From an uncultured Candidatus Rokubacteria bacterium (GTDB lineage Bacteria; Methylomirabilota; Methylomirabilia; Rokubacteriales; CSP1-6), in assembly GCA_963747235.1 (NCBI GenBank), contig CAVVEU010000008.1:288001-352000 (forward strand): DNA of 64,000 nt, in the 5' to 3' direction. Shown here piece by piece: positions 24,201 through 39,436 of this stretch; within the stretch, counting starts at the first letter, position 1; each line of letters begins with the position of its first letter. The position numbers were made by a program, and so were the translations under genes. The notes under the pieces are model-generated. The model was given only the letters and a program-made list of their open reading frames with translations, searched no databases and was not told the DNA's origin.

Positions 24201-25665
24201 GCTCCCGGTGACGATGGAGGTGAAGCAGAAGATCGAGATCCCGAGCCTGGCCGTGGTGCTCTCGATCGACCGCTCGGGCTCCATGGCCATGACCACCGAC
24301 GAGAAGGTGACCAAGCTCGACATCGCCAAGGAGGCCTCGCACCTGGTGGTGGACCTGCTCGACGAGCGCAACGAGGTCGGGGTCATGAGCTGGGACACCG
24401 AGTTCATCTGGGACGCGCCCCTCCGGCCGGCCCGGGACAAGCAGGGCATCCACCACGCGATCTCCACGATCAAGGCGGGCGGCGGCACCGACGGCTACCC
24501 GGCGCTGAAGGAGGCCTACCAGGTCCTCTTCGACCGGCCCGGCGCTGCTGAAGCACGTCATCTTCCTGTCGGACGGGCAGATGACCCGCGGCGACTTCTC
24601 GGGCCTGCTGCGGCGCATGGCCAAGGACAAGATCACGGTGTCGACCGTGGCCATCGGCAAGGACGCCGACGTGCCCGCTCATGGTGGACGTGGCCAAGTG
24701 GGGCCGCGGGCGCTTCTACTACACCGAGGACGACTCCACGATTCCCCGCATCTTCACCCTGGAGACGCAGCTCGCCTCCAAGGCGTCGCTCGTGGAGCAG
24801 CCCTTCAAGGCCACCGTGGCCAGCCCCGGCGCACGAGGCCATCCAGGAGATCGACTGGAAGGAAGCGCCGCCGCTCGGCGGCTACGTGGCCACCAGCATG
24901 AAGAGCAACGCGGACCTGGTGCTGATGACGCACCAGGAGGACCCGCTGCTCGCCACGTGGCGCTACGGCCTGGGCCGGTCGGTGGCCTTCACCTCCGACG
25001 CCAAGGCCAAGTGGGGCGTGCTCTGGGTGCGCTGGGGCGGCTTCAACAAGTTCTGGTCCCAGGTGACGCGCTGGACGCTGCGCACGGGCACCCGGAGCGA
25101 TACGGTGGCCACGGTCTCGCGCAGCGACAACGTGGGCGAGGTGCTGGTCGACGCGATCGATCCCAAGGGCGAGTTCATCAACTTCCTCGACTCGCAGGTC
25201 GGCGTGGTGTCGCCGGACAAGACGCGCACCGTGATCGATCTCGAGCAGATCGGCCCGGGCCGCTACCGCGGGCGCTTCCCGGCGAGCCAGGAGGGCGTGT
25301 ACCTGGTCGGCATGGCCCAGCGCCGGGCGGACCAGATGGTGGGCTCCCAGCTCGCCGGCCTCGTGGTGCCCTATGGCCAGGAGTTCCGCGACCTGGGCGT
25401 GGACGAGACGTTCCTCCGGGAGCTCTCCGAGCTCACCGGCGGCGGCATGCTGAGCGATCCGAAGGACGCGTTCCTCCAGAACCGGCACAAGTCGCGCCTG
25501 AGCGTGGACATCTGGCCGTGGCTGGTGGGGATGGTGGCGGTGCTGCTGATCCCGGAGATCGCGCTGCGCCGGATCGGGCCGGTTGGCCTCGGCCGGCTGA
25601 TGGCGCGCCTGCGCGCGGGCCGAGCCAAAGGAGGGCGTGGAGATGAGAGCGCTGATCCGAGCTAA
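21262..25665 (+). CDS. Large BatA-VWA / VWA / GATase-like (DUF1355) / VWA membrane protein; several indels
   Basis: BatA N-terminus (PLLLLYFLK...VSSLLLW); MIDAS-like DSSAS, DVSDS and DRSGS; GGGLMMLGGEESFGLGGYYRTPIEEALPV; WRYGLGRSVAFTSD; C-terminal TM. Confidence 0.8.
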   Translation: MNFLSPFALLLATLSVPLLLLYFLKVRRRQMRVSSLLLWAPALRDREASTFFQRLQRDPLLILQILALLALTAALARPAVNVMGQGAKRIAIVMDSSASMKATDVSPSRFVQAQRAALGLLGRLGEGAEVMVIEAGVQPRVLVPFTREHDRVSSAIRSMEAHDLPNRLQEGLRTARALVGPDPRAEIHVFTDGAHPDALKGQGDDVRVRWTGIGLRCQQRGHHEPRGPPELLRGLQLAGVLLGRQLLGRAADPLAHADPGRRGPRRAHAHPRPAGAARDHGAVQRAARRGAQAQAQRDGRSRRRQHRLRGHAAAPDDLGPPGQPRQPVPREGAEDRPAGAARGAQARHLPGRHGRLRRRGGGQREPAEAGQRPLRPRQHRARGRAARGAGAPRSPTDHGLGPHASDHAADRLRQGDDRGRDARPAARRRQDAGGGGGRAADLRPRGARPQGRLLRLRSLPQRLPAAGGLPAHALQGAPLAAPGRARPGEPAAPGGPADPAAGGARGDHRHRAHAVRTERAGAGQPRDGELHRDRRGRHLLGGDRPRRDPRGGEPDERRRVGPDPAAAAHLRGERAAGVGPGADRARALAVLRGPGPAALRPGGLPLLAPADRRAPRAAPGPGRPLGPRAPLRAPGDAALRADQADDPALGRPAERDLPAGRVGQREPGRPRERVPVRRPVGGEHAAGRPGRRGGVRRGSDGGPAAPRDRQARAAPGPGAAGAGRTWRRRSSSRWPPRPPARPTGSCCSRTAGRMQGNALAVAQAAKDAGADIYYVPAPLTFTQEVVVESMVLPQEVKFGEPFQAKVVAWSQAETQGRLSLYRNAEFLGSQVVRLSPGKNVFTYRQSLEQSGIHVYQAALDVDGDTIEENNRAVGTLVVRGRPQVLLAEKDRNQAQALAAALRSQHVDVTVVEADSIPKDMAGLQKYDGLILSNVSSLKMTKKQMENIRDYVREQGGGLMMLGGEESFGLGGYYRTPIEEALPVTMEVKQKIEIPSLAVVLSIDRSGSMAMTTDEKVTKLDIAKEASHLVVDLLDERNEVGVMSWDTEFIWDAPLRPARDKQGIHHAISTIKAGGGTDGYPALKEAYQVLFDRPGAAEARHLPVGRADDPRRLLGPAAAHGQGQDHGVDRGHRQGRRRARSWWTWPSGAAGASTTPRTTPRFPASSPWRRSSPPRRRSWSSPSRPPWPAPAHEAIQEIDWKEAPPLGGYVATSMKSNADLVLMTHQEDPLLATWRYGLGRSVAFTSDAKAKWGVLWVRWGGFNKFWSQVTRWTLRTGTRSDTVATVSRSDNVGEVLVDAIDPKGEFINFLDSQVGVVSPDKTRTVIDLEQIGPGRYRGRFPASQEGVYLVGMAQRRADQMVGSQLAGLVVPYGQEFRDLGVDETFLRELSELTGGGMLSDPKDAFLQNRHKSRLSVDIWPWLVGMVAVLLIPEIALRRIGPVGLGRLMARLRAGRAKGGRGDESADPS

Positions 25666-26990
25666 CCGGACCGTCGTCACCGCACTGCTGCTCGCGCTGG
25701 TCGCCGCCGCGGGGGTCGAGGCGGCGCCCAAGCCGCGCAACGTGCTCATCCTGCCGTTCGCGCACCGTGGACCTGACGCGGGAGGAGCAGTGGATCGGCG
25801 AGGGCGTGGCGCAGTCGCTCATGCTCGCCCTCGTCCACGTGCCGGGGCTCGTGCAGATCGACCGCGACCGCCTGCGGCAGGTTCCGCAGCCCGAGGCGTG
25901 GGACGAGACGGCCGCCGTGGCCGCCGCGAAGCGGCTCGGCGCGGACGTCGCCCTGTTCGGGGAGGTGAAGCGGACGGGGAGCGACCTGATCCTGCAACCT
26001 CGCTTCGTCGAGCTGCGCGGCGACAAGGTCGAGCGCGGCACGCTCGATACGGTCGCCATCGCGGAGGGCCAGCTGCTGGACCGGCTCCGTCCGCTGCCCG
26101 CCGGCTACCTCAAGGCCCTCCGAGCCCCCGCGAGCGACGTGGAGCTGGCGCGCGTCCAGAAGTGGGCGGCGCCCACCGGACAGCTACGCGCCTACGAGCT
26201 CTACGTGCGCGGGCGCCAGGCCGCGTACCGGACGACGCAGGACGGCAGCGAGGCGGCGGTCGAGTTCCTGAGCCGCGCCATCGAGGCGGATCCGCAGTTC
26301 GTCGCCGCCCAGCACGCGCTCGGCGTGGTCCACCAGAACCTCGGCAATCGCTGGAAGGCGGCCGCGCAGTTCCGCGCCTCCGCCCAGCTCGATCCGACCT
26401 ACGCGGAGCCCTACAAGGCGCTGGGCGATCTGTACCTCACGGCGCCGCGCCGCCTCTTCGAGGAGGCCATCAAGGCCTACGCGAAGGCCATCGAGCTGCG
26501 CCCGTTCTACGCGGAGGCGCACGTGGGGCTGGGCGATGCGCTCGCCGCGAAGGGCGACGTGGATCCGGCGGTCGCCGCGTACCAGCGCGGCATCGAGCAC
26601 AATCCGATGAATGGCAAGGTGTACGTGAGCCTGGGGAAGCTCTACTACTCCGAGAAGGGGCTCTACTACGAGTCGGTCAACGCCTACAAGAAGGCGATCG
26701 ACCTGGATCCCACGTACCTCGACGCGCGGATGGGGCTGGCCGAGGTGTACGAGGACAAGGGACTCTACAAGGAAGCCATCGAGGAGTACCGCAAGGTCGT
26801 GGACGCCGACGCCAAGAACACCGGCGCGCTCTACAACCTGGCCCTCGTCTACGAGAAGGTGGACCCCAAGGAATCGATCACGCTCTGGGAGCGCTACATC
26901 GGCCTGGCCGGGAACCTGCCCGCGGAGAAGGACTGGGTGGACGTCGCCCGGCTGCACCTGCGCAAGCTGAAGCAGCAGCAGGGCAACTAG
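25643..26990 (+). CDS. Exported TolB-N-like/TPR-repeat protein; one indel
   Basis: Signal peptide, ILPF..WIGEGVAQSL, several TPRs (YAEAHVGLGDAL, AYKKAIDLDP). Confidence 0.85.
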
Positions 26991-27007
26991 CGGACCGACG
27001 TCCCGGG

Positions 27008-27253
27008 CTAGATTCCCAGCAGGGTCTTGAGCTGCGGCTTGTTGAAGCCGCGGACCACCTGATCCCCCACCACGATCACCGGGATGCTCATGCCTCCCGA
27101 CAGCTTGATCAGCTCGTCCCGGGCCTCCGCGTCGGCCAGGACATTGACGTCCTCGAACACCACCCCCTGAGACGAAAGATACTCTTTCGCCGCCTTGCAG
27201 GGCCCTCAGGTGGGACTGCTGAAGACTCGGACGACCGGCTGCGGGTCAATCAT
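27008..27253 (-). CDS. Glutaredoxin-like (NrdH/YruB) selenoprotein, 81 aa, UxxC motif (absent from the ORF track)
   Basis: MIDPQPVVRVFSSPT-TGA-GPCKAAKEYLSSQGVVFEDVNVLADAEARDELIKLSGGMSIPVIVVGDQVVRGFNKPQLKTLLGI; UGA at 27206-27208; cis-Pro and GF motifs; frame intact. Confidence 0.92.
27165..27202 (-). promoter_or_regulatory. Bacterial SECIS element of the selenoglutaredoxin
   Basis: mRNA CCCUG...GGCGAAAGA-GUA-UCUUUCGUC-U-CAGGG: lower stem plus 9-bp upper stem with apical G, 3 nt after the UGA. Confidence 0.85.
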
Positions 27254-27496
27254 CGGTGTCGGCCTTTCTGTGTGCCTGCGAGCGAAGTGGGTGACGCGTC
27301 TAGCGTAGCAGAGGGCCCGGTTCAGCGCCCGTTTCAGTCACTCCATTGTGACTGCCCCCGTCAGGCGTGGCGGCCCCGGTCCACTCGATTCCAGCCGGTC
27401 TACGCGTTTTCAGCTAGATACCCTGTGCAGGACCTGCTGGCCCCTCTCTTGCTCTGTTACGAGGCCGCAGTAGTGACCCGACTGGAGGGGACGATC

Positions 27497-27886
27497 ATGG
27501 CCCGCTGGTTCCGGAGCAGAGAGCGAGGCTTCACGCTGGTCGAGCTGATGGTCGTCGTGGCCGTCATCGGTGTCCTCGCCACGATCGCGATCCCGCTCTA
27601 CGCCAACGTGCTGGCCCGCGGCCGGATCGCGAAGGCGCAGGCCGATTCCCGCTCCCTGGCCTCGGCGGTCGGTGTCTACGGCGCCCACATGGGGACGATC
27701 CCGTCGGCCCTCACCCAGCTCACCTCGGTCGTGACCAACGCGCAGGGGAACCGGGCGGGCCCGTTCATGAACTCGATGCCGATCCCGCCGGGGGGATGGG
27801 CCGCTTACGCCTACACCGCGAACGTCTCGGCCGGGACCTACTCGATCACCTCCAGCGGCGACGGCACCAGCGTCACCTCTCCGTAG
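27497..27886 (+). CDS. Type IV pilin / pseudopilin
   Basis: RERG|FTLVELMVVVAVIGVLATIAIP prepilin cleavage/methylation motif; SD GGAGG. Confidence 0.9.
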   Translation: MARWFRSRERGFTLVELMVVVAVIGVLATIAIPLYANVLARGRIAKAQADSRSLASAVGVYGAHMGTIPSALTQLTSVVTNAQGNRAGPFMNSMPIPPGGWAAYAYTANVSAGTYSITSSGDGTSVTSP

Positions 27887-27976: not shown

Positions 27977-28960
27977 ATGAGCGATCTCCGCAAGGATCCG
28001 ACCAGGGGCCGCTGGGTTCTCGTACGCCCGGGCCCGAAGCGCCCCGCCGCCTCGGTGTGTCCGTTCTGTCCCGGGAACGAGTCGCATACGCCCCGCGAGA
28101 TCTTCGCCTACCGCAAGGAAGGCTCGGCGCCCAACGGACCCGGCTGGTCGGTGCGGGTGATCCCGGAGGCCGATCCCTACTTCCGCGTCGAGCAGGAGCT
28201 CGTGCGCGAGGGGCTGGGGCTCTACGACCGCATCTCGCCCCGAGGCGCCACCGAGCTGATCGTCGAGAGCCCGAGCCACGACGACACCGCGGCCACGCTG
28301 GGCGACGGGCAGTGGGAGCAGGTGCTCTGGATGTACGGGGAGCGCATCCGGGATCTCAAGCGGGATCAGAGCATCCGCGACATCCTGGTCACGCGGCGCC
28401 ACCGGGCGCCCGGCTCGCGGATCACGCATCCGTACTCACGCCTCACCGCCATTCCGATCATCTTCGATGAGGTGCGGCGCAAGCTCCGCGAGTGCCGCGA
28501 GCACTACGAGTACAAGCGGCGCTGCGTGTACTGCGACATGATCCGCCAGGAGATCGCCGCGGGCGATCGGGTGGTGCGGCTCACCGACCACTTCCTGGCC
28601 CTCTCGCCGTACGCGGCCTGCTCGCCGTACGAGACCTGGATCCTGCCTCGCCAGCACAATTGCCTCTACGAGGGCTCGCTCTCGGGGGACGTCGTGGCGG
28701 ACCTGGCGGGCCTCCTGAGCGGCCTCTTCCGCACCCTCAGCGGCAAGCTGGGGGACCCGCCGTTCGAGATGACGCTCTACACGGCGCCCAACCTGGCCGC
28801 CAAGATCCTGCCCGGGGAGTGGTCGACCATCGCCGACGACTACCACTGGCACATCGAGATCCGCACCGTGCCGGACCGCCTGAACGGGATCGGGGGCATC
28901 CACGTGAACGAGACGCCTCCCGAAGAGGCCGCCAAGCAGTTCCGGGATGCCTGGTTGTAG
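27977..28960 (+). CDS. GalT-like (DUF4931/HIT superfamily) nucleotidyltransferase homolog with altered active site
   Basis: LRKDPTRGRWV, CPFCPGNE, CVYCD, PYETWILP, YHWHIEI; HPHxQ motif reads HPYSR. Confidence 0.85.
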   Translation: MSDLRKDPTRGRWVLVRPGPKRPAASVCPFCPGNESHTPREIFAYRKEGSAPNGPGWSVRVIPEADPYFRVEQELVREGLGLYDRISPRGATELIVESPSHDDTAATLGDGQWEQVLWMYGERIRDLKRDQSIRDILVTRRHRAPGSRITHPYSRLTAIPIIFDEVRRKLRECREHYEYKRRCVYCDMIRQEIAAGDRVVRLTDHFLALSPYAACSPYETWILPRQHNCLYEGSLSGDVVADLAGLLSGLFRTLSGKLGDPPFEMTLYTAPNLAAKILPGEWSTIADDYHWHIEIRTVPDRLNGIGGIHVNETPPEEAAKQFRDAWL

Positions 28961-29013
28961 CCCGGTCAGGCCGCTCTAAGTACCACACCAGCCGCCAGAA
29001 ACCGAGATTCACC

Positions 29014-29079
29014 TTGACAGGGCCCAGTCCGGGTGGCAGACTCCGACTGTACAGGTCGCCGATCATAAGGGTCGGATAT
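29014..29079 (+). promoter_or_regulatory. isc promoter with candidate IscR type-1-like boxes
   Basis: TTGACA -35; CCGAC-N7-GTCG (29043-29058) and CCGAT-N7-GTCGG (29059-29075) resemble GAC-N7-GTC IscR sites. Confidence 0.5.
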
Positions 29080-29098
29080 AAGCGGGGAGGGCATCAGG

Positions 29099-29539
29099 TT
29101 GCTGAGATTCACGAAGCGAGCGGACTACGGGCTCATGGCCGTGCACTTCATCGCCTCGCACGGCGAAGACGGCGCGGTGAGCGCGAAGCGGATCGCGGAG
29201 GAGTTTCACATCCCGCCCGAGCGGTTGGCCAAGATCCTCCAGCGCCTGGCGAAGAAGAAGCTGGTCGCCAGCTCCAACGGCCCCAAGGGCGGCTACGTGC
29301 TGACCCGGGACCCGTCAGAGATCACGGTGGGGCAGGTGGTCCGGGCGCTCGAGGGCCCGATCAGCGTGGTGAGCTGCATGAGCGAGCGGGACGATTGCCC
29401 GCAGTTCGAGCGCTGCAACCTGCGGGGCCCGGTGCAGAAGATCCAGGCCAGTATCAGCCACGTACTGGATAGCATGACGCTCGCGGAGCTGGGGGCGGAG
29501 CCGACCGTCCCGGTCACACCGCTGGCGTTCATTCATTAG
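29099..29539 (+). CDS. iscR: Rrf2-family regulator, IscR-like
   Basis: [18 protein letters not shown], three Cys (SC...DC...RC); first gene of the isc operon. Confidence 0.85.
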
Positions 29540-29558
29540 AGTCGAGGAGAACGACGGT

Positions 29559-30785
29559 ATGGCGTTGAAGCTTCCGATCTTCATGGACAGCCAGTCCACG
29601 ACCCCGGTGGATCCCCGGGTGCTCGAGACGATGATCCCGTATTTCACGGAGAAGTTCGGCCATCCGGCGAGCCGCAACCATCCCTTCGGCTGGGAGGCCG
29701 AGGGCGGAGTGGACGTGGCCCGCGAGCAGATCGCCAAGCTGATCGGCGCCCGGGACCCCAAGGAGATCGTGTTCACCTCCGGGGGTACCGAGGCGATCAA
29801 CCTGGCCCTCAAGGGCGTGGTCGAGATGTACCGGGAGAAGGGCAACCACATCGTCACCACCACGATCGAGCAGCGGGCCACGCTGGACGTCTGCAAGCGG
29901 CTCGAGCGGCAGGGCTTCGAGGTGACCTATGTGCCGGTGGGCCGCGACGGGCTGGTGGACGTCGAGGCGGTCCGGGCCGCGCTGACCGACAAGACCATCC
30001 TGATCTCGGTCATGTTCGCCAACAACGAGATCGGGACGATCCAGCCGATGGCCGAGATCGGCAAGCTCGCCAAGGAGAAGGGCATCATCTTCCACACCGA
30101 CGCCACCCAGGCGGTGGGCAAGATCCCGGTGGACGTGGAGGCGATGGGCATCGACCTGCTGTCGGCCACCGCCCACATGCTGTACGGGCCCAAGGGCGTC
30201 GGCGCGCTCTACGTGCGGCGGAAGAACCCGCGGGTGCGCATCGCGCCCATGATGGACGGCGGCGGCCACGAGCGGGGCATGCGCTCCGGCACGGTGCCGG
30301 TGCCGCTGGTGGTCGGTTTCGGGAAGGCGGCGGAGATCTGCCGCGAGGGCATGGCCGAGGAGAGCAAGCGGCTCGCCGCGCTCCGCGACCGGCTCCAGGA
30401 GCAGATCGTCTCCAAGGTGGACGAGGCCTACGTGAACGGGCATCCCACGCTGCGCCTGCCGCACAACCTGAACATCTCCTTCGCCTACGTCGAGGGCGAG
30501 TCGGTGCTGATGGGGCTCAACAAGGAGGCGGCGCTGTCCTCGGGCTCGGCCTGCACCTCGGCCACGCTCGAGCCCTCGTACGTGATCTCGGCGCTGGGCG
30601 TGGACTCCGAGCTGGCCCACTCGTCGATCCGCTTCGGGCTGCACCGGTTCTCCACCGAGGAAGAGGTGGACTTCGTGGCGCGCAAGACGGTCGAGGTCGT
30701 GCTGCGGCTGCGGGAGATGTCGCCGCTCTACGAGCTCGCGAAGGAAGGCGTGGACCTGAAGTCGATCCACTGGAAGGCGGAATAG
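29559..30785 (+). CDS. iscS: IscS-family cysteine desulfurase homolog lacking the PLP Schiff-base lysine
   Basis: IscS signature throughout ([43 protein letters not shown]), but [10 protein letters not shown] instead of HK and EQRA instead of EHKA. Confidence 0.9.
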
Positions 30786-30811
30786 ACGCCGCCCGACGGC
30801 GCACAGGAGGC

Positions 30812-31237
30812 ATGACCGACATGGCCTACAGCGACAAGGTGGTCGATCACTACAACAACCCGCGCAACGTGGGGTCCTTCACCAAGGACACCCCGGGCGT
30901 GGGCACGGGGCTGGTGGGCGCGCCGGAGTGCGGCGACGTCATGAAGCTGCAGATCAAGGTCAACGTCGAGACCGGCGTCATCGAGGACGCCAAGTTCAAG
31001 ACGTTCGGCTGCGGCAGCGCCATCGCCTCGTCGAGCCTGGCCACCGAGTGGCTCAAGGGCCGGACGGTGGACGAGGCGGCCAAGATCAAGAACACGGACA
31101 TCGTCAACGAGCTGAAGCTGCCGCCGGTGAAGATCCACTGCTCGGTCCTCGCCGAGGACGCGATCAAGGCCGCGCTCCAGGACTACAAGGAAAAGTGGAG
31201 CGCGAACGAAGCCCCGGCGGGCCGGGACGCGTCCTAA
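30812..31237 (+). CDS. iscU: Fe-S scaffold IscU
   Basis: [42 protein letters not shown]. Confidence 0.96.
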
Positions 31238-31256: not shown

Positions 31257-31586
31257 ATGGCACTGGCACTGACCGAGACGGCGGCGAAGCAGGTCAAGAA
31301 GCTCATGGAGGACGCAGAAGCTGGAGAACTGTCTCCTGCGGATGGGCGTCAAGGGCGGGCGGCTGCTCGGGCCTGTCGTACTCGCTCGAGTTCGACACCG
31401 AGATCGGGCCCCACGACAAGAAGTTCGACATCGACGGGCGTGCAGGTGGTCTGCGACACCAAGAGCTATCTCTACCTGAACGGCACCACGCTCGACTACG
31501 TCACGGAGGGGCTCCAGGGGGGGTTCACCTTCGTCAACCCCAGCGCCAAGTCGAGCTGTGGCTGCGGGACATCGTTCTCGGCCTGA
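31257..31586 (+). CDS. iscA: A-type carrier IscA/HesB; frameshifted
   Basis: [41 protein letters not shown]. Confidence 0.9.
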
Positions 31587-31617
31587 GGCCCGCGTGCCGG
31601 CGGGAAGACGACGAACG

Positions 31618-31647
31618 AACGGGCCCGGCCGGGCCCGTTGTTGTTTT
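31618..31647 (+). terminator. Internal terminator/stabilizer hairpin between iscA and hscB
   Basis: AACGGGCCC-GGCC-GGGCCCGTT followed by GTTGTTTT. Confidence 0.6.
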
Positions 31648-31664
31648 CGAGACGGAAAGGCGAC

Positions 31665-32234
31665 GTGAGCGACTACTTCACGGTGTTCGGGCTGCCCCGC
31701 AAGCTCGGGGTCGACACGGAGGCGCTGCAGCGGCGATTCTACGAGCTGTCGCGCCAGCATCATCCCGATTTCCACCAGGGGGCGGGCGCCGAGCGCCAGG
31801 CGGAGGCGCTGGGCCAGTCGGCGCTGATCAACCGCGCCTACCGCGCCCTCCGCGACCCGCTCGCGCGCGTCGAGTACCTGATCGCGCTCGAGGAGGGCCG
31901 GGAGGTTCGCGAGGGCGCCACCGACGAAGCCGAAGGCGCCGCGGGAGCTCCTCGAGGAGATGATGGAGGTGCAGGAGGCGCTCGAGGAGGCCAAGGCCGG
32001 CGGGCTCGACGGAGGAGCGCCGGCACGCGGCTGCGCGCGAGGAGCGCCGGCGGCTCGAGGAGCGCTACGCCGGCCGAGGCGGCGGCGATCGTCGCCCGGT
32101 CCGCGGACTGGGACCGGCGGTGGACGAGGGCGGCGACCGCGGCCGCTGCTCGAGTGGTTCAAGCAGCGGCTCGCGACGCGGGCCTACCTGCGCACCGTCA
32201 TCGACGACCTGAGCGACGCGCTGGGAGAGGATGA
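31665..32234 (+). CDS. hscB: Fe-S co-chaperone HscB; frameshifted
   Basis: DYFTVFGL, J-domain HPD, INRAYRALRDPLARVEYL. Confidence 0.88.
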   Translation: MSDYFTVFGLPRKLGVDTEALQRRFYELSRQHHPDFHQGAGAERQAEALGQSALINRAYRALRDPLARVEYLIALEEGREVREGATDEAEGAAGAPRGDDGGAGGARGGQGRRARRRSAGTRLRARSAGGSRSATPAEAAAIVARSADWDRRWTRAATAAAARVVQAAARDAGLPAHRHRRPERRAGRG

Positions 32235-32244
32235 AGGACGCAGC

Positions 32245-34084
32245 ATGTCTCGCATCGTCGGCATTGATCTCGGGACGACCAACAGCCTGGTCGCCTACGT
32301 GGAGGGCGGCATCCCGCGGGTGATCCCGGACGCGGAGGGGCGCACCCTGCTGCCCTCGATCGTCGCCTGGACCCGCAACGGCGTGGTGGTGGGCGAGGCG
32401 GCCCGCCGCCAGCTCGCCCGCAACCCGGCGCGCACCGTCTACTCGGTCAAGCGGCTCATGGGCCGCGGCTACGAGGACGTGAAGGACGAGCTGCGCGCAC
32501 GTGCCCTTCGAGGTCACCCCGCAGCGCGGAGGTGGTGCGCATCCGCGTCGGCGACCGCGCGGTGACGCCGCCCGAGGTCTCGGCCCAGATGCTCCGCGCG
32601 CTCAAGCAGCGGGCGGAGACCCACTTCGGCGAGCCGGTCGAGCAGGCGGTGATCACGGTGCCGGCCTACTTCAACGACGCCCAGCGGCAGGCCACCAAGG
32701 ACGCCGGCCGCATCGCGGGCCTCGAGGTGCTGCGCATCGTCAACGAGCCCACCGCGGCGTCGCTCGCCTACGGGCTGCAGAAGCTCGCCCAGGGGCTCAT
32801 CGCGGTCTACGATCTGGGCGGCGGCACCTTCGACATCTCGATCCTGCGCGTGAAGGACGGCGTCTTCGAGGTGCTCGCCACCAACGGCAACACGCATCTG
32901 GGCGGCGACGACTTCGACCGGGCGATGGTGGACTGGCTCCTCGCCGACATCCAGCGCCGCCACCGCGTGGACCTCTCCGGGGACGCGGAGGCGCTGCAGG
33001 AGCTCCGCCTCGGCGCGGAGGCCGCGAAGTGCCGGCTCTCCTTCGACGAGCGGACCGTGCTCACGATCCCGTTCGAGGGCTTCACCTACCGGCGCGACAT
33101 CGCCCGGGCCGAGGTCGAGGCCCTGGTGGCGCCGCTGGTGGCCGCGACCCTCGGCCCGTGCCGGCAGGCGCTCGCGGACGCCGCGCTCCGCGGCCGACCA
33201 GGTCGACGAGGTGGTGCTGGTGGGCGGCTCCACGCGGATGCCGCTGGTGCAGCGGCGCGTCGCAGGAGCTCTTCGGCAAGACGCCGCACAGCCAGCTCAA
33301 TCCGGACGAGGTGGTGGCGCTGGGCGCGGCGGTCCAGGCGCAGATCCTGGCCGGCGGCATCACCGACATGCTGCTGCTCGACGTGACGCCGCTGTCGCTC
33401 GGGATCGAGACGCTGGGCGGCATCGTGAGCGTGCTGATCCCGCGCAACACCACGATCCCGACGCTGGCCAAGGAGTACTTCACCACGTCGGTGGACGGGC
33501 AGACCGCGGTGGACATGCACGTGCTCCAGGGCGAGCGCGAGCTGGCCAAGGACAACCGCTCGCTCGCCCGCTTCGACCTGGCCGGGATCGACCCGATGCC
33601 GGCGGGCATGCCCAAGATCGAGGTGACCTTCCTCATCGACGCCAACGGCATCCTGCAGGTCCAGGCGCAGCGAGCTCCGGACCGGCAAGGCGGCGCGCAT
33701 CGAGGTCAAGCCGACCTACGGCCTCACCGAGGACGCAGGTGGAGCAGATGGTGGAGGACTCGTTCACGCACGCCGAGGCCGACGTCGAGGCGCGGCTCCT
33801 GATCGAGACGCAGACCGAGGCCGACACCGTGCTGAACCACGTGGAGCGCGCGCTCGCGCCAGGCGCGCGACATCGTGGCCGACGCCGAGGAGCTGGCCGC
33901 GATCGAGGCGGCGCGTCGCCGCGCTGCGGGCCGTCGCGGGCGGGCACCGACCGCGATCGCGATCCGCGAGCGCACGACCGCGCTCAACCAGGCCACCGAG
34001 CCGCTCGCCGAGGCATGATGGACGCCGCCATCAAGGACGCGGTCACCTCGAAGCGGGCCGACCAGCATCCTGGAGCAGTCGTGA
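32245..34084 (+). CDS. hscA: Fe-S chaperone HscA (Hsp70 family); frameshifted
   Basis: [50 protein letters not shown]; position in the isc operon. Confidence 0.88.
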
Positions 34085-34408
34085 TGGCGACGCACAAGGT
34101 CACGTTCCTGCCGCTCAACGTCACGGTCGAGGTGGACGACGCGAAGTACCCGCTGGCCGATCACGGCCGGCCGGGCTCGCTGCTCGACATCGCGCTGGCC
34201 AACGACATCCACCTCGAGCACAACTGCGGCGGGAGCTGCGCCTGCACCACCTGCCACGTCATCGTGCGCGAGGGCGAGCAGAACCTCTCGCACCATGGAG
34301 CAGGACGAGGAGGACCGCCTCGACACCGCGGAGGGGCTGACGCTCCACTCGCGGCTCGGCTGTCAGGCGATCGTCCGGGGCGACGTGGTCGTGGAGATCC
34401 CGAAGTAG
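34084..34408 (+). CDS. fdx: ISC-type [2Fe-2S] ferredoxin; one indel
   Basis: LEHNCGGSCACTTCHVIV, SRLGCQ. Confidence 0.92.
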
Positions 34409-34455
34409 GGCGAGCCGCCGCCGAAGTCGAGGCGAGCGAACATGGAGAATCGATC

Positions 34456-34658
34456 GTGAAATGGCAGGACGCCGAGGACATCGCGCTGGCCCTGATGGAG
34501 GCGCACCCGGACATGGACCCGCTCACCGTGCGCTTCACCGACCTGCACAAGTGGGTGGTCGGCGCTGCCGGGCTTCACGCGACGACGCCAAGGGCTCCAA
34601 CGAGGGGATCCTGGAGGCGATCCAGATGAAGTGGCACGAGGAGTACCAGGATCGCTAG
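34456..34658 (+). CDS. iscX: Fe-S assembly protein IscX; frameshifted
   Basis: KWQDAEDIALAL, DPLTVRFTDLHKWV, SNEGILEAIQMKWHEE. Confidence 0.92.
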
Positions 34659-34659
34659 G

Positions 34660-34891
34660 CTACCAGGTGATGACGTGATCGTGCGCGAAGATCAGGTCGA
34701 GCAGGCCCGCGTAGTCGAGGTCGCCCGGGGCGAGGCGCCGCACCGCGACGCCCGCGGGGAGCGACGGCGCGGCGCGCGCCGTCGAGCAGGACCACCGTGA
34801 CCCGCGCGTCGGCCTCCCGGAGGTTGGCCTCGATCACCGCGCCCGCGAGCGCGGCCGAGTCGCGCTTCAGGAGGTGCAGGAAGGTGGCCAT
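34660..34891 (-). CDS. DsrH/TusB-like small protein; frameshifted
   Basis: FLHLLK...LDYAGLLDLIFAHDHVITW C-terminus typical of DsrH/TusB. Confidence 0.7.
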
Positions 34892-35250
34892 CAGAACACG
34901 AGAAAGCGCGTGGCGCGGGACGAGCATCGCGGCGATCTCGGCCGGCGTGACCGGGACCACCGGATGCCCGTCGGCGTTCCAGTCCGGCCGCCGCGGCCGG
35001 AGCGCCCTCGACGTGGAACGGCACGCCGAGCTTCTGGAGCGCGGCGCGGAACTTGGCGATGTCGTCGCCGTCCACCAGGTCGTCGGTGTCGTCGTCGAGC
35101 AGGTGGACGGCGGGGCCGGTCAGCACGATGCGCGACGTCGTTCTCGCCCGCCACGATGCCGAGCGCGATGCGCATCGCCTCGTTGGCCCGGTGGGAGACG
35201 CGCGGGTCCTCCGAGATGAGGACGAGGACGGGCTGGCTCGGGCTCGCCAC
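34891..35250 (-). CDS. DsrF/TusC-like (DsrE family) protein; frameshifted
   Basis: VLISEDPRVSHRANEAMRIALG; lies between DsrE-like and DsrH-like genes. Confidence 0.7.
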   Translation of the reverse strand: MASPSQPVLVLISEDPRVSHRANEAMRIALGIVAGENDVAHRADRPRRPPARRRHRRPGGRRRHRQVPRRAPEARRAVPRRGRSGRGGRTGTPTGIRWSRSRRPRSPRCSSRATRFLVF

Positions 35251-35251
35251 G

Positions 35252-35569
35252 CTAGTTGAGCGCGATGAAGCGATCGGTGCCGTTGATCACGTCGGTGAGC
35301 ACGACGAGGCCGCAGTTGGTGGCGCGCTCGGACAGGGGCCGGCGGCGCTTCTGGCAGCCGTAGGCGCACACGAAGAGCTTGAGCGCCGCGATCGGCGAGC
35401 GCGTGGAGACGATCGTCTTCCACCGCGTCCACCGCGTCGTCGATCAGGTAGAGGTAGACGTCGCCGCCGCCGTCGAGCGCGGCCCGGGACAGCCCGATGG
35501 CGGTCTCGAGGTTCGGGTGGTCGGGGCGGTGGAGAGCATCAGACCGAGCTTCCGTTTGGCCGAGGCCAT
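35252..35569 (-). CDS. DsrE/TusD-like sulfurtransferase; frameshifted
   Basis: LSRAALDGGGDVYLYLIDDAV...KLFVCAYGCQKR...NCGLVVLTDVINGTDRFIALN. Confidence 0.78.
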
Positions 35570-35605
35570 GCGGGCGCAGCGTAGCATCGTGAAAGGGGAG
35601 CGTCA

Positions 35606-36765
35606 ATGAACCGGAAGGTCTATCTCGATCACAACGCCTCCACCCCGGTGCATCCCGAGGTGGTCGAGGCGATGCTGCCGTACTGCAGCGAGCGCTTCGG
35701 CAATCCGTCGAGCGTCCACGGCTTCGGCCGCGAGGCGCGCGAGGGGCTCGAGACCGCGCGCGAGCAGGTCGCGCACTTCCTCCGGGTCGGCAAGGAGGAG
35801 ATCGTGTTCACCTCGGGCGGCACCGAGTCCGACAACCTGGCGATCAAGGGCGTGGCGATGGCGCGCGGTCGCGGCCACCTCATCACGTCGAAGATCGAGC
35901 ACCACGCGGTGCTGCGGACGGTGCAGAGCCTCGAGACCCTGGGCTTCGCGGCCACCTATCTCGACGTGGACGGCGACGGCCTCGTGGATCCCGACGCGGT
36001 CCGCCGGGCCATCCGGCCCGACACCATCCTGATCTCGATCATGCACGCCAACTCCGAGATCGGCACGATCCAGCCCGTCGCGGGAGATCGGCGCGATCGC
36101 GCACGAGCACGGGCATCCCGTTCCACGTGGACGCGGTGCAGACCTTCGGGAAGGTGCCGATCGATCTCGACGCGTTCGACATCGACATGCTGTCCTTCTC
36201 CGGCCACAAGATCTACGGGCCGAAGGGGGTGGCGGGGCTCTACATCCGCAAGGGCACCAAGATGGTCTCCGTCCAGCACGGCGGCGAGCACGAGCGGCGC
36301 CGTCGCGCGGGCACCGAGAACGTGACGGGCATCGTCGGGCTCGGCCGGGCGGTCGAGATCCGCGGCCGCGACATGGCGGACGAGGCGGTCCGGCTGACCG
36401 CGCTGCGCGACCGCCTCTGGGAGGGCATCCGCGGCCGGGTGCCCGACGTGCGGCTGAACGGCCATCCGACCCGGCGGGTCCCCGGCACGTGCAATATCTG
36501 CTTACCGGCACGTGGAGTCGGAATCCATCGTGCTCGGCCTGGATCTGAAGGGCATCGGCGTGTCGGCCGGCTCGGCGTGCACCTCGGGCAACGTGGAGCC
36601 GTCGTACGTGCTGGTGGCGATGGGGGTGCCGGTGGAGTGGGCGATGGGCGCGGTGCGGCATGCTCGCTCGGGCGGAGCACCACCGCCGAGGACATCGACT
36701 ACGTGGTCGAATCGACCGTGCCGCTGGTGGAGAAGCTGCGGAGCGTCATGCCGGTCCGGGCCTAG
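35606..36765 (+). CDS. nifS: Cysteine desulfurase (NifS/IscS group I), catalytically intact; frameshifted
   Basis: [33 protein letters not shown] (PLP Lys present), SAGSACTSG. Confidence 0.92.
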
Positions 36766-36780
36766 CCGGCCGGCGACCGG

Positions 36781-37177
36781 ATGCAGTACAGCCCGACCCT
36801 GATCGATCACTTCCGGAATCCACGGAACGCTGGCATCATGCGGAATCCGGACGGGGTGGGGGAAGGGGAGTACAAGGACTGCATGGACCTGGTCCGGTTT
36901 CACCTGCGCGTGCGGGACGGGAAGGTGATGGAGGCGCGGTTCCAGGCCTACGGCTGCGGGCCGACCATCGCGGCGGCGAGCGCGGCGACCGAGGTGGCGA
37001 CGGGCTGCACGCTGGACGAGCTGCTGGCGGTGGAGGCGGCGCGGGTCGAGGCCGCGGTGGGCGGGCTGCCGGAGCCGCGGCGGCACGCGGCGGACGTCGC
37101 GGTCCTGGGCGCTGCGGGCGGCGGCGCGCGACGCGCTGAGCCGGGCGGCGGAGACGAGGAGCGATCGGCATGCTTGA
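36781..37177 (+). CDS. IscU/NifU-N-like protein lacking the third Cys
   Basis: [29 protein letters not shown]; LPEPRRHAA instead of LPPVKIHC. Confidence 0.82.
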
Positions 37178-37846
37178 GCGAATGCGGCAGGACGTGAGGA
37201 CGGTGCTGGAGCGCGACCCGGCGGCACGCTCGGCGCTCGAGGTGGTCCTCTGCTAGTCCGGGCGTGCACGCGATCTGGATCCATCGCGTCGCCCACGCGC
37301 CTCTGGCGCGGCGGCTGGCACCTCGCCGCCCGCTGGGTGTCGCACGTGGGGCGCTTCGTGACCGGCATCGAGATCCACCCCGCCGCCGTCCTGGGCCCGG
37401 GCCTCTTCATCGATCACGGCATGGGCATCGTCATCGGCGAGACCGCCGAGGTCGGCGAGAACGTCAGCATCCTCCAGGGCGTGACCCTGGGCGGCACCAG
37501 CCTCAAGCGCGAGAAGCGCCACCCCACCTCGGCGACAACGTCATGATCGGCGCGGGCGCCAAGGTGATCGGCGGCTTCACCATCGGCGCGGGCAGCCGGA
37601 TCGGCGCCGGCTCGGTGGTGGTCCGCGAGGTGCCGGAGAACTGTGTCGTGGTCGGCGTGCCCGGTCGCATAACATTCCGCAACGGCGAGCGGGTGATCGG
37701 GGCCATCGACCTCAACCAGACCGATCTGCCCGACCCGCTGGCCCGGACGCTCGAGCAGATGGTGGACCGGATCCACGACGCTCGAAGCCGAGATCGAGCG
37801 ACTGAAGAAGGCGGCCGACGTCCCCGCGGACGCGCCCGCGGACTGA
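37170..37846 (+). CDS. cysE: Serine O-acetyltransferase; frameshifted
   Basis: [49 protein letters not shown]. Confidence 0.93.
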
Positions 37847-37872
37847 CCCAGCCCACAGGAGGCCAGAGCGAC

Positions 37873-38052
37873 GTGCTGCTGCCAAAAGACACGATGGACG
37901 TGAAGGAAGCCGCGCGGTATCTCGCCATGGAGGAGGGGACGGTGGCCCAGATGGCCATCGATCGCCTCATCCCGGCCGTCGAGCACGAGGGCAAGTGGCT
38001 CTTCTCCAAGAAGTCCATCGACAAGTGGCGCGGCCGCAGCGCCACGCGCTAG
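37873..38052 (+). CDS. Small excisionase-type HTH (HTH_17) protein
   Basis: SD AGGAGG; [10 protein letters not shown]...IPA...[13 protein letters not shown]. Confidence 0.8.
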
Positions 38053-38059
38053 CTGCCGC

Positions 38060-38203
38060 GCCGACACGGCGGGCCGAGCGGCTCAGTCACGCGCGCTGAC
38101 CGCAACGCGCTGACCGCAGGCCCGAGCTGTGCAGTACCAAGCGCTCGGGTCAACGCTGAGACGGAACTGGGGGAGTGCGGGGGCCATTTCGAGGCCCCCG
38201 CAT
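38060..38203. repeat. Structured intergenic element with short direct repeat and REP-like hairpins
   Basis: CGCGCTGACCGCA twice; CCCGAGC...GCTCGGG; TGGGGGAG followed by TGCGGGGGCC-N7-GGCCCCCGCA. Confidence 0.5.
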
Positions 38204-38231
38204 ATAAGAAGAGCCTTAAAGAACTAGACGA

Positions 38232-39436
38232 TTGCCCGCCCTCCCCCCGCTGACCCGGACGATTCTCCACGTCGACATGGACGCGTTCTACGCGTCCGTG
38301 GAGCAGCGCGACCGGCCGGAGCTGCGCGGGCGGCCGGTGATCGTGGGCGCGGATCCGTCGGGGCGCGGCGTGGTGTCGGCCGCCTCGTACGAGGCGCGGC
38401 GGTTCGGGGTCCACTCGGCCATGCCCATCGGGCGCGCCACGCGGCTCTGCCCCGACGGCGCGTTCGTGCCGGTCGACATGGACAAGTACGCGGGCGTCTC
38501 CGGCGAGGTCATGGCGATCCTCGCCGACTTCACCCCGCTGCTCGAGCCGGTCTCCATCGACGAGGCGTTCCTGGACGTGACCGGCGACCGACGGGCTCCA
38601 CGGCGACGGTCCGGCGATGGCGCGGCGCCATCAAGGCGCGCATCGCGACGTCGCTGCGGCCTGACCGCGTCCGTCGGCGTGGCCGCCGAACAAGTTCGTG
38701 GCCAAGGTCGCCTCCGATCTCCGCAAGCCGGACGGGCTCGTGGTGGTGGCCGCGGGCACCGAGGCGGACTTCCTCGCGCCGCTGCCGGTCTCGCGCCTCT
38801 GGGGCGTGGGCCGCGTGACCGCGGAGGGGCTCGAGGCCATGGGCCTGCAGACGATCGGCCAGCTCGCCGCGGTCCCCGCCGAGTTCCTCGAGGCCCGGTT
38901 CGGCCCGAGCGGCCGCAGCCTCCAGGATCTCGCCCGCGGGCGCGACGACCGCGCGGTCGAGCCGTTCGCGCCGCCCAAGTCCATGGGCGCCGAGGAGACG
39001 TTCGGCCACGATCATCGCGACGTCGAGCGCCTGCACGCCACCCTGCGCGAGCAGGCCGAGCGCGTGGCGCGCGAGCTGCGCGCGGGAGGCTACGCGGGGC
39101 GCTGCGTGACGCTCAAGCTCCGCTTCGCGGACTTCTCCACGCTGACGCGCGCGCCATACCGACGACCCCACGCAGGACGGGCTCGCGATCTACCGCCGCG
39201 CCCGCGCCCTGCTCGACCGCATTCCGCTCCGCCAGCCGGTCCGGCTCATCGGGCTGTCCGTGTCCTCGCTGGGGCCCGCCGCGGCCGGCCAGCTCTCGCT
39301 GCTCGAGCCGGACGCGCAGCGCCGGGAGCGGCTCGCGCGGGCCATGGATCGGGTCACCGCGCGCTTCGGCGAGGAGTCGCTGCGCCCGGCCAGCGTCGTC
39401 CGGCGGCCCCGCCGGGGCCCGTTGCCTTCGGGGTAG
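38232..39436 (+). CDS. dinB: DNA polymerase IV; frameshifted
   Basis: [51 protein letters not shown]. Confidence 0.93.

Follow-up and report, generated by a model that had tools for sequence, protein, structure and literature searches.

A Lys-less IscS-subfamily protein, very probably inactive as a cysteine desulfurase, is maintained in the isc operon of a Rokubacteriales family

The stretch of DNA analysed here (the window; 64,000 nucleotides) belongs to the assembly of an uncultured Candidatus Rokubacteria bacterium, designated G000. It carries genes in the confirmed order iscR-iscS-iscU-iscA-hscB-hscA-fdx-iscX, followed by three small DsrE/F/H-like genes, a nifS-like gene, a gene for a NifU-N-like protein and cysE (Table 1). 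An earlier note, made from the sequence alone, had described a complete isc operon and an intact NifS at 35606. The gene order is real, but iscA, hscB, hscA, fdx and iscX are frame-broken in G000, and the nifS gene is intact only in relatives such as G002. Frame changes, in some genes repeated, also affect the DsrE/F/H-like genes and cysE, whereas iscR, iscS and iscU are each read in a single frame. About 40 single-base insertions are located between 31.3 and 38.7 kb, none of them in iscS. The insertions are specific to G000, as the same positions show up against two relatives; they account for the frame changes past iscU and are probably assembly errors. When sequencing runs were searched with sampled words of the stretch, none contained half of them or more, the best share (0.31) coming from soil metagenomes.

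Table 1. Features of the isc locus in the window (G000, assembly of the window; G002, genome of a relative)
Feature	Position	Strand	Description
iscR, Rrf2-family regulator	29099..29539	+	single frame; 86% identity to G002 orthologue (tblastn); Pfam Rrf2 119.6 bits on G002 orthologue
iscS	29559..30785	+	408 aa, intact; IscS-subfamily protein without PLP Lys and stacking His
Gln105 codon CAG	29871..29873	+	equivalent of E. coli His104; Gln in 58/58 Lys-less orthologues
Met207 codon ATG	30177..30179	+	equivalent of E. coli Lys206 (Schiff-base Lys); orthologues Met 24/58, Leu 34/58
Cys332 codon TGC	30552..30554	+	SSGSAC mobile loop, equivalent of E. coli Cys328; Cys in 58/58
iscU scaffold	30812..31237	+	single frame; canonical three Cys; Pfam NifU_N 182 bits; ECGD, GCGS and HCS motifs (alignment)
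iscA, A-type carrier	31257..31586	+	middle out of frame in G000; one ORF only 55% identical to G002 IscA; insertions 31310-31439
hscB	31558..32250	+	frame-broken in G000
hscA	32245..34065	+	at least 5 frame changes in G000; six tblastn pieces, frames 1, 3, 1, 2, 3, 1
fdx, [2Fe-2S] ferredoxin	34084..34405	+	one frame change; Pfam Fer2 on G002 orthologue
iscX	34459..34658	+	one frame change; Pfam Fe-S_assembly 111.5 bits on G002 orthologue
three small DsrH/DsrF/DsrE-like genes	34663..35587	-	frame-broken in G000; Pfam DsrE on two of three G002 orthologues (28.5, 30.5 bits), third without family match
nifS-like type I cysteine desulfurase, Lys kept	35606..36765	+	at least 3 frame changes in G000; intact 384 aa in G002; TIGR03402 on G002 orthologue 525.7 bits, cut-off 530.75
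NifU-N-like protein	36781..37197	+	His-Ala replaces third-Cys His-Cys; Pfam NifU_N 88 bits
cysE, serine acetyltransferase	37170..37810	+	frame-broken in G000; Pfam Hexapep and SATase_N on G002 orthologue

The ORF translation of iscS has zero stops and no indels, as had been reported for it. HMMER aligns residues 3-406 with human NFS1 (8pk8; 505 bits, or 505.5 to one decimal) and with E. coli IscS (1p3w; 500 bits). In the alignment to NFS1, 'ahMlygpkg' is matched to 'ghKiygpkg' and 'ieQra' to 'teHkc', which identifies positions 207 and 105 as those of the PLP-binding lysine and the stacking histidine; the Met and Gln codons that the earlier note had read there are confirmed. Among 147 aligned representatives, 144 have Lys at the PLP site and 143 have His at the stacking site. 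The protein scores 616.5 bits with NCBIfam NF010611, above the cut-off of 548, and 596.9 bits with TIGR02006, below the cut-off of 643.2. HTDATQ, NNEIG, RSGT, SSIRF, the SSGSAC loop and the C-terminal tail are all kept, and the alignment to NFS1 and IscS up to residue 406 covers the C-terminal extension of the IscU-binding type, which NifS does not have. By contrast, the N-terminal 'DSQSTTP', previously listed as an oddity, is ordinary: human NFS1 reads VQATTP and Lys-bearing relatives read FMDS[QHN]STTP. Databases label proteins of this type 'IscS subfamily cysteine desulfurase', a name that thus sits on proteins very probably without desulfurase function.

Both substitutions recur throughout the family of the window (f1). 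Gln105 together with Met or Leu at 207 is found in the intact ORFs of 58/58 full-length translated orthologues, from f1 plus the one genome of family f5, and none of them has Lys or His at these sites. The matches span 392-408 aa (407-408 aa in 56 of the 58) with no internal stops. The same holds for all 120 of the closest protein clusters, which stem from independent metagenomes and have Gln and Met/Leu at the two sites; two of the nearest proteins carry the source name Methylomirabilota, a phylum abundant in soil. Motif scans across the order (183 genomes) found Met at the Lys site in 35, and Leu in 89 further f1 genomes (hand count of the rows listed), and the Lys-less codon is present in at least 123 of the 159 f1 genomes sampled. 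Of the trees built (a quick IQ-TREE tree and a FastTree tree), the latter needs only one change between Lys and non-Lys at position 207, which in the Lys-less clade is occupied by Met or Leu only and flips between them at least seven times. Sister genus g10 has kept the lysine but carries H104Q and Q183E (E. coli numbering), which, judged from sequence, is a second natural inactivation.

The median pairwise dN/dS in the Lys-less clade is 0.095 (153 pairs) versus 0.101 in canonical Lys-bearing relatives (15 pairs), indicating purifying selection. Conservation of 90% or more among 144 Lys-bearing representatives marks 64 positions, of which the Lys-less clade keeps 57. Besides 105 and 207, five conserved positions have changed, all of them in a way common to Lys-bearing relatives of the order, so that the clade-specific losses of family-wide conserved residues are those at 105 and 207 only. 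Thr77, Asn156, Asp181, His206, Thr245, Cys332 and Arg358 are invariant in all 58 orthologues, and Gln184 is kept in 57. Conservation of the PLP-pocket motifs reaches 0.94-0.98 against a protein average of 0.876, and the mean top-residue share of the C-terminal tail is 0.88.

Two further candidates were considered and rejected. A compensating lysine elsewhere in the protein does not emerge, as the sole clade-specific gain, at position 113 (which we take to be the equivalent of Arg112, a surface site), is an R-to-K swap with position 117, and the other listed Lys positions are common to Lys-bearing relatives. Degenerative change at positions 37, 80 and 241 was dismissed as well: human NFS1 has Met at 241 (and His at 37), Ala37 and Met241 presumably agree with E. 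coli IscS, and Ile80 stands for Asp at a site that is Asn in NFS1.

One might attribute the unusual residues to a mistake in sequencing or assembly, or to a pseudogene in decay, given that G000 is error-prone downstream, with its single-base insertions. However, the same residues in 58/58 orthologues and 120/120 metagenome clusters exclude chance or read error at codons 105 and 207, and together with the indel-free iscS and a dN/dS of about 0.09 they refute this explanation, the probability of which we consider negligible. The earlier note had also argued against a read error, from several coordinated substitutions; it was right about the error, but 'several' was an overstatement, as only two are clade-specific. 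The Lys-less IscS is a maintained protein, neither an error nor a decaying gene.

The consequences of such substitutions can be judged from E. coli IscS, in which His104, Asp180, Gln183, Lys206, Cys328 and Arg354 are conserved active-site residues. In a study of its variants, H104Q, Q183E and K206A are each devoid of desulfurase activity, yet still contain some PLP and accumulate trapped cysteine adducts, and very slow partial turnover is a matter of speculation for K206A (PMC9978102). Because the H104Q and K206A variants are inactive, the Lys-less IscS, by analogy, very probably lacks cysteine desulfurase activity. The low dN/dS and the family-wide distribution further support the earlier proposal of a maintained protein without PLP chemistry. 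With Met or Leu in place of Lys206 the internal aldimine could not form, and with Gln in place of His104 the acid-base/stacking histidine would be gone, leaving the protein unable to produce its own persulfide from cysteine.

Other potential sources of persulfide are encoded in the same genomes. At a threshold of E<=1e-120, a NifS orthologue is present in 143 of the 159 f1 genomes, among them 65 of the 67 of high quality, and nifS lies ~5.5-6.5 kb from the Lys-less iscS wherever both share a contig. This synteny also occurs in Lys-bearing relatives and is thus permissive, not specific to the Lys-less clade. NifS and the Lys-less IscS are type I homologues of the same cluster, 47-50% identical, but NifS (384 vs 408 aa) is without the IscS C-terminal tail and has a NifU-like neighbour of its own. 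G000 also encodes SufS (560 bits) as an orphan. SUF as the main system was rejected, for SufB was not found in G000 (88% complete) and was detected in only 6 of 41 relatives; the principal scaffold system therefore appears to be ISC.

IscS/NFS1 is at once a sulfur-mobilising enzyme and a meeting platform for IscU, ferredoxin, frataxin/CyaY and IscX. In model organisms the two roles are inseparable, since loss of the enzyme kills the pathway. For the Lys-less protein we favour, with about even confidence, a reading in which the dead IscS is kept as a hub for IscU, Fdx and IscX and as a relay through its Cys loop, with sulfur arriving in trans and NifS as the likeliest donor. The IscS dimer would serve as a docking platform for IscU via the C-terminal tail, its basic patch would be the binding surface for Fdx and IscX, and Cys332 of the mobile loop would bear a persulfide, act as a ligand of the [2Fe-2S] cluster forming on IscU, or do both. 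The most likely supplier of sulfur would be the Lys-bearing NifS ~6 kb downstream, beside cysE, with the orphan SufS as the next candidate. We infer the binding of IscU from the conservation of the tail, and the identity of the donor is likewise what we infer. That an adaptor might receive its sulfur from another protein had been raised in the earlier note, and this fits in so far as NifS is syntenic and near-universal, SufB was not found in most relatives, and the tail for IscU binding is kept along with the Cys loop.

More tentatively, a division of labour between the two paralogues can be envisaged, in which NifS would perform the PLP chemistry, while the Lys-less IscS would accept and deliver persulfide on Cys332 and act as the hub for IscU, Fdx, IscX and HscBA, as an ISC counterpart of SufS-SufE. 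Such an arrangement may have arisen when two paralogues that share a gene cluster underwent subfunctionalisation, with at least two starts (Gln/Met-Leu in f1 and f5; Gln/Glu in g10). We know of no demonstrated case of persulfide transfer between two type I desulfurases. Some observations sit less easily with the favoured reading. The PLP pocket, conserved above the protein average, is not obviously needed in a pure scaffold, and its conservation could reflect ligand binding, sensing or slow chemistry. As to a relay, NifS has its own NifU-like neighbour, and nifS is frame-broken in G000.

Several alternatives to the hub and relay have to be weighed. The Lys-less IscS may be a pure scaffold working on free sulfide, which holds IscU and contributes a Cys ligand with no persulfide relay. 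This is the model proposed for the Lys-less IscS of Archaeoglobus fulgidus (PMC8918507), and minimal systems that run on sulfide are an accepted feature of archaea (PMC13066941, PMC7585200). Here we regard it as unlikely, because metagenomes of soil, bog and sediment, settings that are not obviously sulfidic, are the source of the nearest sequences, the conserved Lys-bearing NifS and cysE in the cluster point to cysteine as the sulfur source, and the full HscBA/Fdx/IscX set has been retained. It is also distinctly unlikely, in our estimate, that the Lys-less IscS is still chemically active, either as a slow desulfurase with non-covalent PLP or in a new PLP/PMP-dependent reaction, even though the pocket residues listed above, including the substrate Arg358, show little or no variation among the 58 sequences and the E. 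coli K206A and H104Q variants bind PLP and form cysteine adducts (PMC9978102). Either change alone abolishes measurable activity of E. coli IscS (PMC9978102), and the Lys-less IscS combines both; moreover, the free interchange of Met and Leu at 207 suggests a side chain without a chemical role, and no compensating lysine is present near the pocket.

The same pocket could instead serve regulation, with the protein binding cysteine (as an external aldimine or thiazolidine on free PLP) or competing for IscU and so gating ISC flux by cysteine supply. Conservation of the pocket and of the substrate Arg, the trapping of Cys-PLP adducts by Lys-less E. coli variants (PMC9978102) and the location of iscS in an operon under iscR control all agree with a pseudoenzyme of this kind; nevertheless, a regulator would not require a whole IscU/Fdx/IscX surface and a Cys loop that are as constrained as in an active enzyme, and we consider it very unlikely. 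Still less probable is a heterodimer of the Lys-less IscS and NifS, in which just one of the two active sites would be functional: the two proteins are type I homologues from a single gene cluster, but both are single-copy members of separate orthologue groups, and NifS has no IscS-type tail. To our knowledge, heterodimers of type I desulfurases have not been described.

If PLP chemistry and sulfur delivery are indeed divided between NifS and the Lys-less IscS, a housekeeping ISC machine would need the body of IscS but not its enzyme activity. The whole family amounts to a natural experiment, in which activity-abolishing changes have become fixed while other features remain under strong selection, in a complete bacterial ISC operon and with the SUF scaffold mostly undetected. 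It offers a testable system for asking what non-catalytic role IscS plays, whether sulfur can enter ISC in trans and why the cofactor pocket has been preserved.

The Lys-less IscS belongs to the same subfamily as E. coli IscS and human NFS1 and shares with them the operon context (iscR-SUA-hscBA-fdx-iscX), the mobile-loop Cys, the Asp, Gln and substrate Arg, and the IscU-binding C-terminal tail; unlike them, it is without the Schiff-base Lys and the stacking His and is expected from its sequence to be inactive. With the laboratory variants of E. coli IscS the correspondence is close, as H104Q is matched exactly, Lys206 is also replaced, and g10 reproduces H104Q plus Q183E exactly. The lysine, however, was changed to Ala in the laboratory and to Met/Leu in nature, and the natural proteins are fixed under purifying selection across whole lineages.

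Natural inactive type I homologues without the PLP lysine have been described in archaea, namely A. fulgidus IscS and Methanosarcina acetivorans IscS1 (PMC8918507, PMC7585200), a precedent missing from the earlier note that lowers the novelty of the bacterial protein. Our literature searches, with most subscription journals outside their coverage, returned no bacterial Lys-less IscS. The A. fulgidus protein (Asp199; PDB 4EB5/4HVK) is reported to be inactive and to provide the IscU-bound cluster with a Cys ligand (PMC8918507, PMC7585200); bound PMP and ligation of the [2Fe-2S] cluster on IscU by this Cys are described for it (PMC8918507). As in the bacterial protein, the PLP lysine has been lost and the loop Cys kept. 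In contrast, the archaeal proteins come from minimal iscSU pairs and have Asp in place of the Lys but retain the His, whereas the bacterial one resides in a full ISC operon with chaperones, Fdx and IscX. A. fulgidus 4eb5 is only a distant match (368.8 bits vs 505.5 for NFS1), and the motif at the Lys site is A-H-M, not the archaeal S-x-N-D. The same genome encodes, on contig C13, a separate paralogue of the true A. fulgidus type (best match 4eb5, 350 bits, SGND motif), which argues for an independent origin of the Lys-less IscS. The SufS-SufE and SufS-SufU pairs offer a comparison of another kind. SufE and SufU, unlike the Lys-less IscS, are not desulfurase homologues, but if NifS feeds Cys332, catalysis and delivery would likewise be distributed over two proteins, a likeness that would be one of function only.

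The iscS gene of the window's isc operon is a stop-free open reading frame of 408 aa, and the window DNA reads CAG at codon 105 (Gln) and ATG at codon 207 (Met). The product, hereafter IscS*, is by comparison with solved structures a typical IscS/NFS1: residues 3-406 align with human NFS1 (8pk8, 505 bits) and E. coli IscS (1p3w, 500 bits), and Met207 is there matched with the Schiff-base Lys and Gln105 with the cofactor-adjacent His. The coordinates and both substitutions described in the earlier note are correct. Among NCBIfam models, IscS* scores above the cut-off of NF010611 (616.5 versus 548), which places it in the IscS subfamily, and below that of TIGR02006 (596.9 versus 643.2).

The window spans G000:C8:288001-352000. 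Comparisons with two related genomes, G014 and G002, revealed about 40 extra single bases in the window at positions common to both. None falls inside iscR, iscS or iscU, but the insertions change the frame of iscA, hscB, hscA (six pieces), fdx, iscX, the DsrE/F/H-like genes, nifS and cysE; the nifS that the earlier note called intact is therefore frame-shifted in the sequence as given. Because the broken genes otherwise closely resemble intact orthologues, the insertions are probably local assembly errors in this genome (G000), perhaps coming from long-read assembly (42 contigs). Elsewhere in the window, a long composite open reading frame resembles several frames joined.

The Gln105/Met207 pair is neither an error nor confined to G000. 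Full-length orthologues were obtained by searching 40 relatives in six frames, and among 30 that were translated, 18 carry E-Q together with H-M (14) or H-L (4); they come from the window's genus g1 (15), from genera g4 and g2 of the same family (f1) and from the sole genome of family f5. The other 12, from families f3 and f4, keep Lys. When all 183 genomes of the order were scanned, the H-M-x-YGPKG motif was found in 35, every one in f1, and A-H-Leu-x-YGPKG in at least 89 further f1 genomes among the matches listed (hand count; three flagged unpublished). Since one genome, G131, is counted in both sets, the Lys-less codon occurs in at least 123 of 159 f1 genomes; AAG (Lys) matches in f1, among those listed, mostly lie ~6 kb off the Leu/Met match and represent nifS. 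G131 has two iscS*-nifS clusters, one His-Met and the other Ala-His-Leu, reflecting either a duplication or two strains sharing the bin. One orthologue each from 40 more f1 genomes (~38 genera) showed no internal stop (0/40), matched over 406-408 aa in 39 cases and over residues 1-393 in one, and had Leu or Met at 207 in all 40 and E-Q by regex in 39. The earlier note had proposed looking for the pair in orthologues, and in the joint alignment Gln105 is kept in 58/58, with Leu (34) or Met (24) at residue 207. Likewise, all 120 nearest protein clusters (95-98% identity) in a collection of 5.8 billion proteins have AH-M, E-Q and SGSAC; source names among them include Methylomirabilota (2), Gemmatimonadales (1) and Deferrimicrobiaceae (1).

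We then surveyed the top 150 cluster representatives (50% identity, from 1.84 billion proteins), a sample in which lineages inside other clusters are invisible. The aligned Lys column contained K in 144, gaps in three (fragments), and M, L and D once each, the sole M being the cluster of IscS* itself and the sole L a fragment (327 aa) that belongs to its lineage. The His column contained H in 143, Q in three, N in one and gaps in three.

In a quick IQ-TREE analysis that included outgroups, IscS proteins of the order form a single clade (support 100), within which the Lys-less f1+f5 clade (support 89) is sister to Lys-bearing f3+f4. In a 70-sequence FastTree, a single change explains Lys versus non-Lys (branch support 97), and Met and Leu were swapped at least seven times, or at least three counting well-supported branches alone. 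Since a single step converts AAG into ATG and another converts ATG into CTG/TTG, the short path is Lys to Met to Leu; neither other residues at 207 nor reversion to Lys were seen in the Lys-less clade. Constraint on IscS* is not relaxed: in the dN/dS comparison proposed by the earlier note (pairwise Nei-Gojobori), the median is 0.095 for the Lys-less clade (153 pairs; 0.089 over 105 pairs in g1 alone) versus 0.101 for canonical relatives (15 pairs) and 0.073 for the Lys-bearing sister genus g10 (15 pairs). The protein, fixed across the family in its Lys-less state, is under purifying selection.

Nine alignment positions distinguish the Lys-less clade from Lys-bearing relatives, namely, eight residue positions and an indel column at 120. 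Ala37 and Met241 are the residues of E. coli IscS too; human NFS1, aligned to IscS*, shares Met241 and carries His at 37. The Lys-less clade keeps 57 of the 64 positions that are at least 90% conserved across 144 Lys-bearing representatives. Among the seven that differ, Lys-bearing relatives of the order have the changed residue as well at 8, 35, 343 and 362, and Ser327 is replaced only partly; His105 and Lys207 are the only clade-specific losses. Thr77, Asn156, Asp181, His206, Thr245, Cys332 and Arg358 are invariant in 58/58 Lys-less orthologues, and Gln184 is present in 57/58. The mean top-residue share is 0.94-0.98 for cofactor-pocket motifs, 0.90 for the Cys loop, 0.88 for the C-terminal tail and 0.876 for the whole protein; all three regions are kept. 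Lys was gained only at 113, as a K/R swap with 117, and the alignment contains no other new Lys in the clade. Position 113 is equivalent to E. coli Arg112, which lies on the surface in the acidic-partner patch.

His104, Asp180, Gln183, Lys206, Cys328 and Arg354 of E. coli IscS have been mutated; H104Q, Q183E and K206A have no desulfurase activity, yet bind some PLP and build up cysteine-derived adducts (PMC9978102). IscS* joins the H104Q equivalent and a replaced Lys206 in one protein and, judging from these mutants, would lack desulfurase activity. Genus g10 keeps Lys, and its IscS has exactly the H104Q and Q183E equivalents (Gln105 and Glu184 in 6/6 translated orthologues, L031-L036), each alone reported to abolish E. 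coli IscS activity. Of the order's 183 genomes, 11 have the corresponding H-T-D-A-T-E-A motif, every one g10 (11 of 15 g10 genomes listed). As g10 branches from within the His/Lys genera in the trees, its changes represent a second, independent hit on the active site.

Coordinates of the features discussed
Feature	Location	Strand	Details
Composite ORF	window 25637-27886
End of composite ORF	window 27520-27886	+	type IV pilin-like N-terminus, FTLVELMVVVAVIGVLA
Segment free of extra bases	window 27977-31237
iscS*	window 29559-30785	+
Codon 105	window 29871-29873
Codon 207	window 30177-30179
Extra single bases	window 31300-38700 (31.3-38.7 kb)
Three small genes between iscX and nifS	window 34663-35587	-	weak Pfam DsrE/DsrF on two; third without family match
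nifS	window 35606-36765
NifU-N-like protein after nifS	window 36781-37197; L041, L039		third ligand His-Cys of IscU replaced by His-Ala
SufS	G000:C20:87041-88231 (L042)		560 bits, above NCBIfam cut-off; S-x-H-K motif
Second Lys-less homologue (C13 paralogue)	G000:C13:334340-335785 (L002 1213-2658)		397 aa; motif S-G-N-D-L-Y
g10 IscS, example	G034:C8:2107060-2108286
Two iscS*-nifS clusters of G131	G131:C8:17693; G131:C9:6441

With intact G002 as reference, the gene order is galT-like gene, iscR, iscS*, iscU, iscA, hscB, hscA, fdx, iscX, three small opposite-strand genes (Pfam DsrE on two, no family match for the third), nifS, a NifU-N-like remnant and cysE. The small genes may constitute a TusBCD/DsrEFH-like sulfur relay within the Fe-S cluster locus. 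G002 NifS has 384 aa, keeps the PLP Lys and scores 525.7 bits with TIGR03402 (cut-off 530.75). The His-Ala NifU-N-like protein is present in G000, G014 and Lys-bearing G037, only as fragments in G002, and was not found beside nifS in G034. A nifS orthologue at E<=1e-120 occurs in 143 of 159 f1 genomes (two flagged unpublished) and in 65 of 67 high-quality ones, G000 itself being excluded solely by the split in its copy; wherever iscS* and nifS share a contig, they are 5.5-6.5 kb apart. The same synteny in Lys-bearing relatives indicates that the second desulfurase is older than the Lys loss. SufB was found neither in G000 nor in the two 100%-complete g1 genomes, and just 6 of 41 relatives gave a match; the G000 SufS has the appearance of an orphan type II desulfurase.

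We infer that IscS* remains dimeric and a docking site for IscU, Fdx and IscX, sulfur being supplied in trans, most likely by NifS, with cysteine from the local CysE. In Azotobacter, cysE pairs with nifS/iscS clusters. Cys332 would act as a persulfide carrier and/or cluster ligand, by analogy with the A. fulgidus IscS-IscU structure (PMC8918507). The main fact that a plain scaffold leaves over is that the pocket is conserved above the protein average. Rival explanations are that IscS* retains residual cofactor chemistry or has gained a new one, that it is a regulator sensing cysteine, that it forms a heterodimer with NifS, or that sulfide is used directly. Trans supply to a docking IscS* is the reading we prefer.

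Lys-less type I homologues are already known from archaea, namely, A. fulgidus IscS, an inactive, PMP-binding protein with Asp199, and M. acetivorans IscS1 (PMC8918507 and PMC7585200). A. fulgidus IscS (4eb5) is only a distant match to IscS* (369 bits), and IscS* does not belong to its lineage. The C13 paralogue, by contrast, has inactive A. fulgidus IscS2 as its best solved match (4eb5, 350 bits), shares the S-x-N-D motif with it and directly follows a gene for an 83-aa TusA/YedF-like protein with a CPMP motif; similar matches, with 43-45% identity to IscS*, turn up in almost every relative. It is a true A. fulgidus-type paralogue, separate from IscS*. A full-text literature search, with most subscription journals outside its reach, found no report of a bacterial housekeeping IscS without Lys. 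Unlike its archaeal counterparts, IscS* is bacterial, belongs to a complete ISC operon, is of independent origin, carries other residues and is fixed family-wide, and the case adds a second natural route of inactivation, in sister genus g10.
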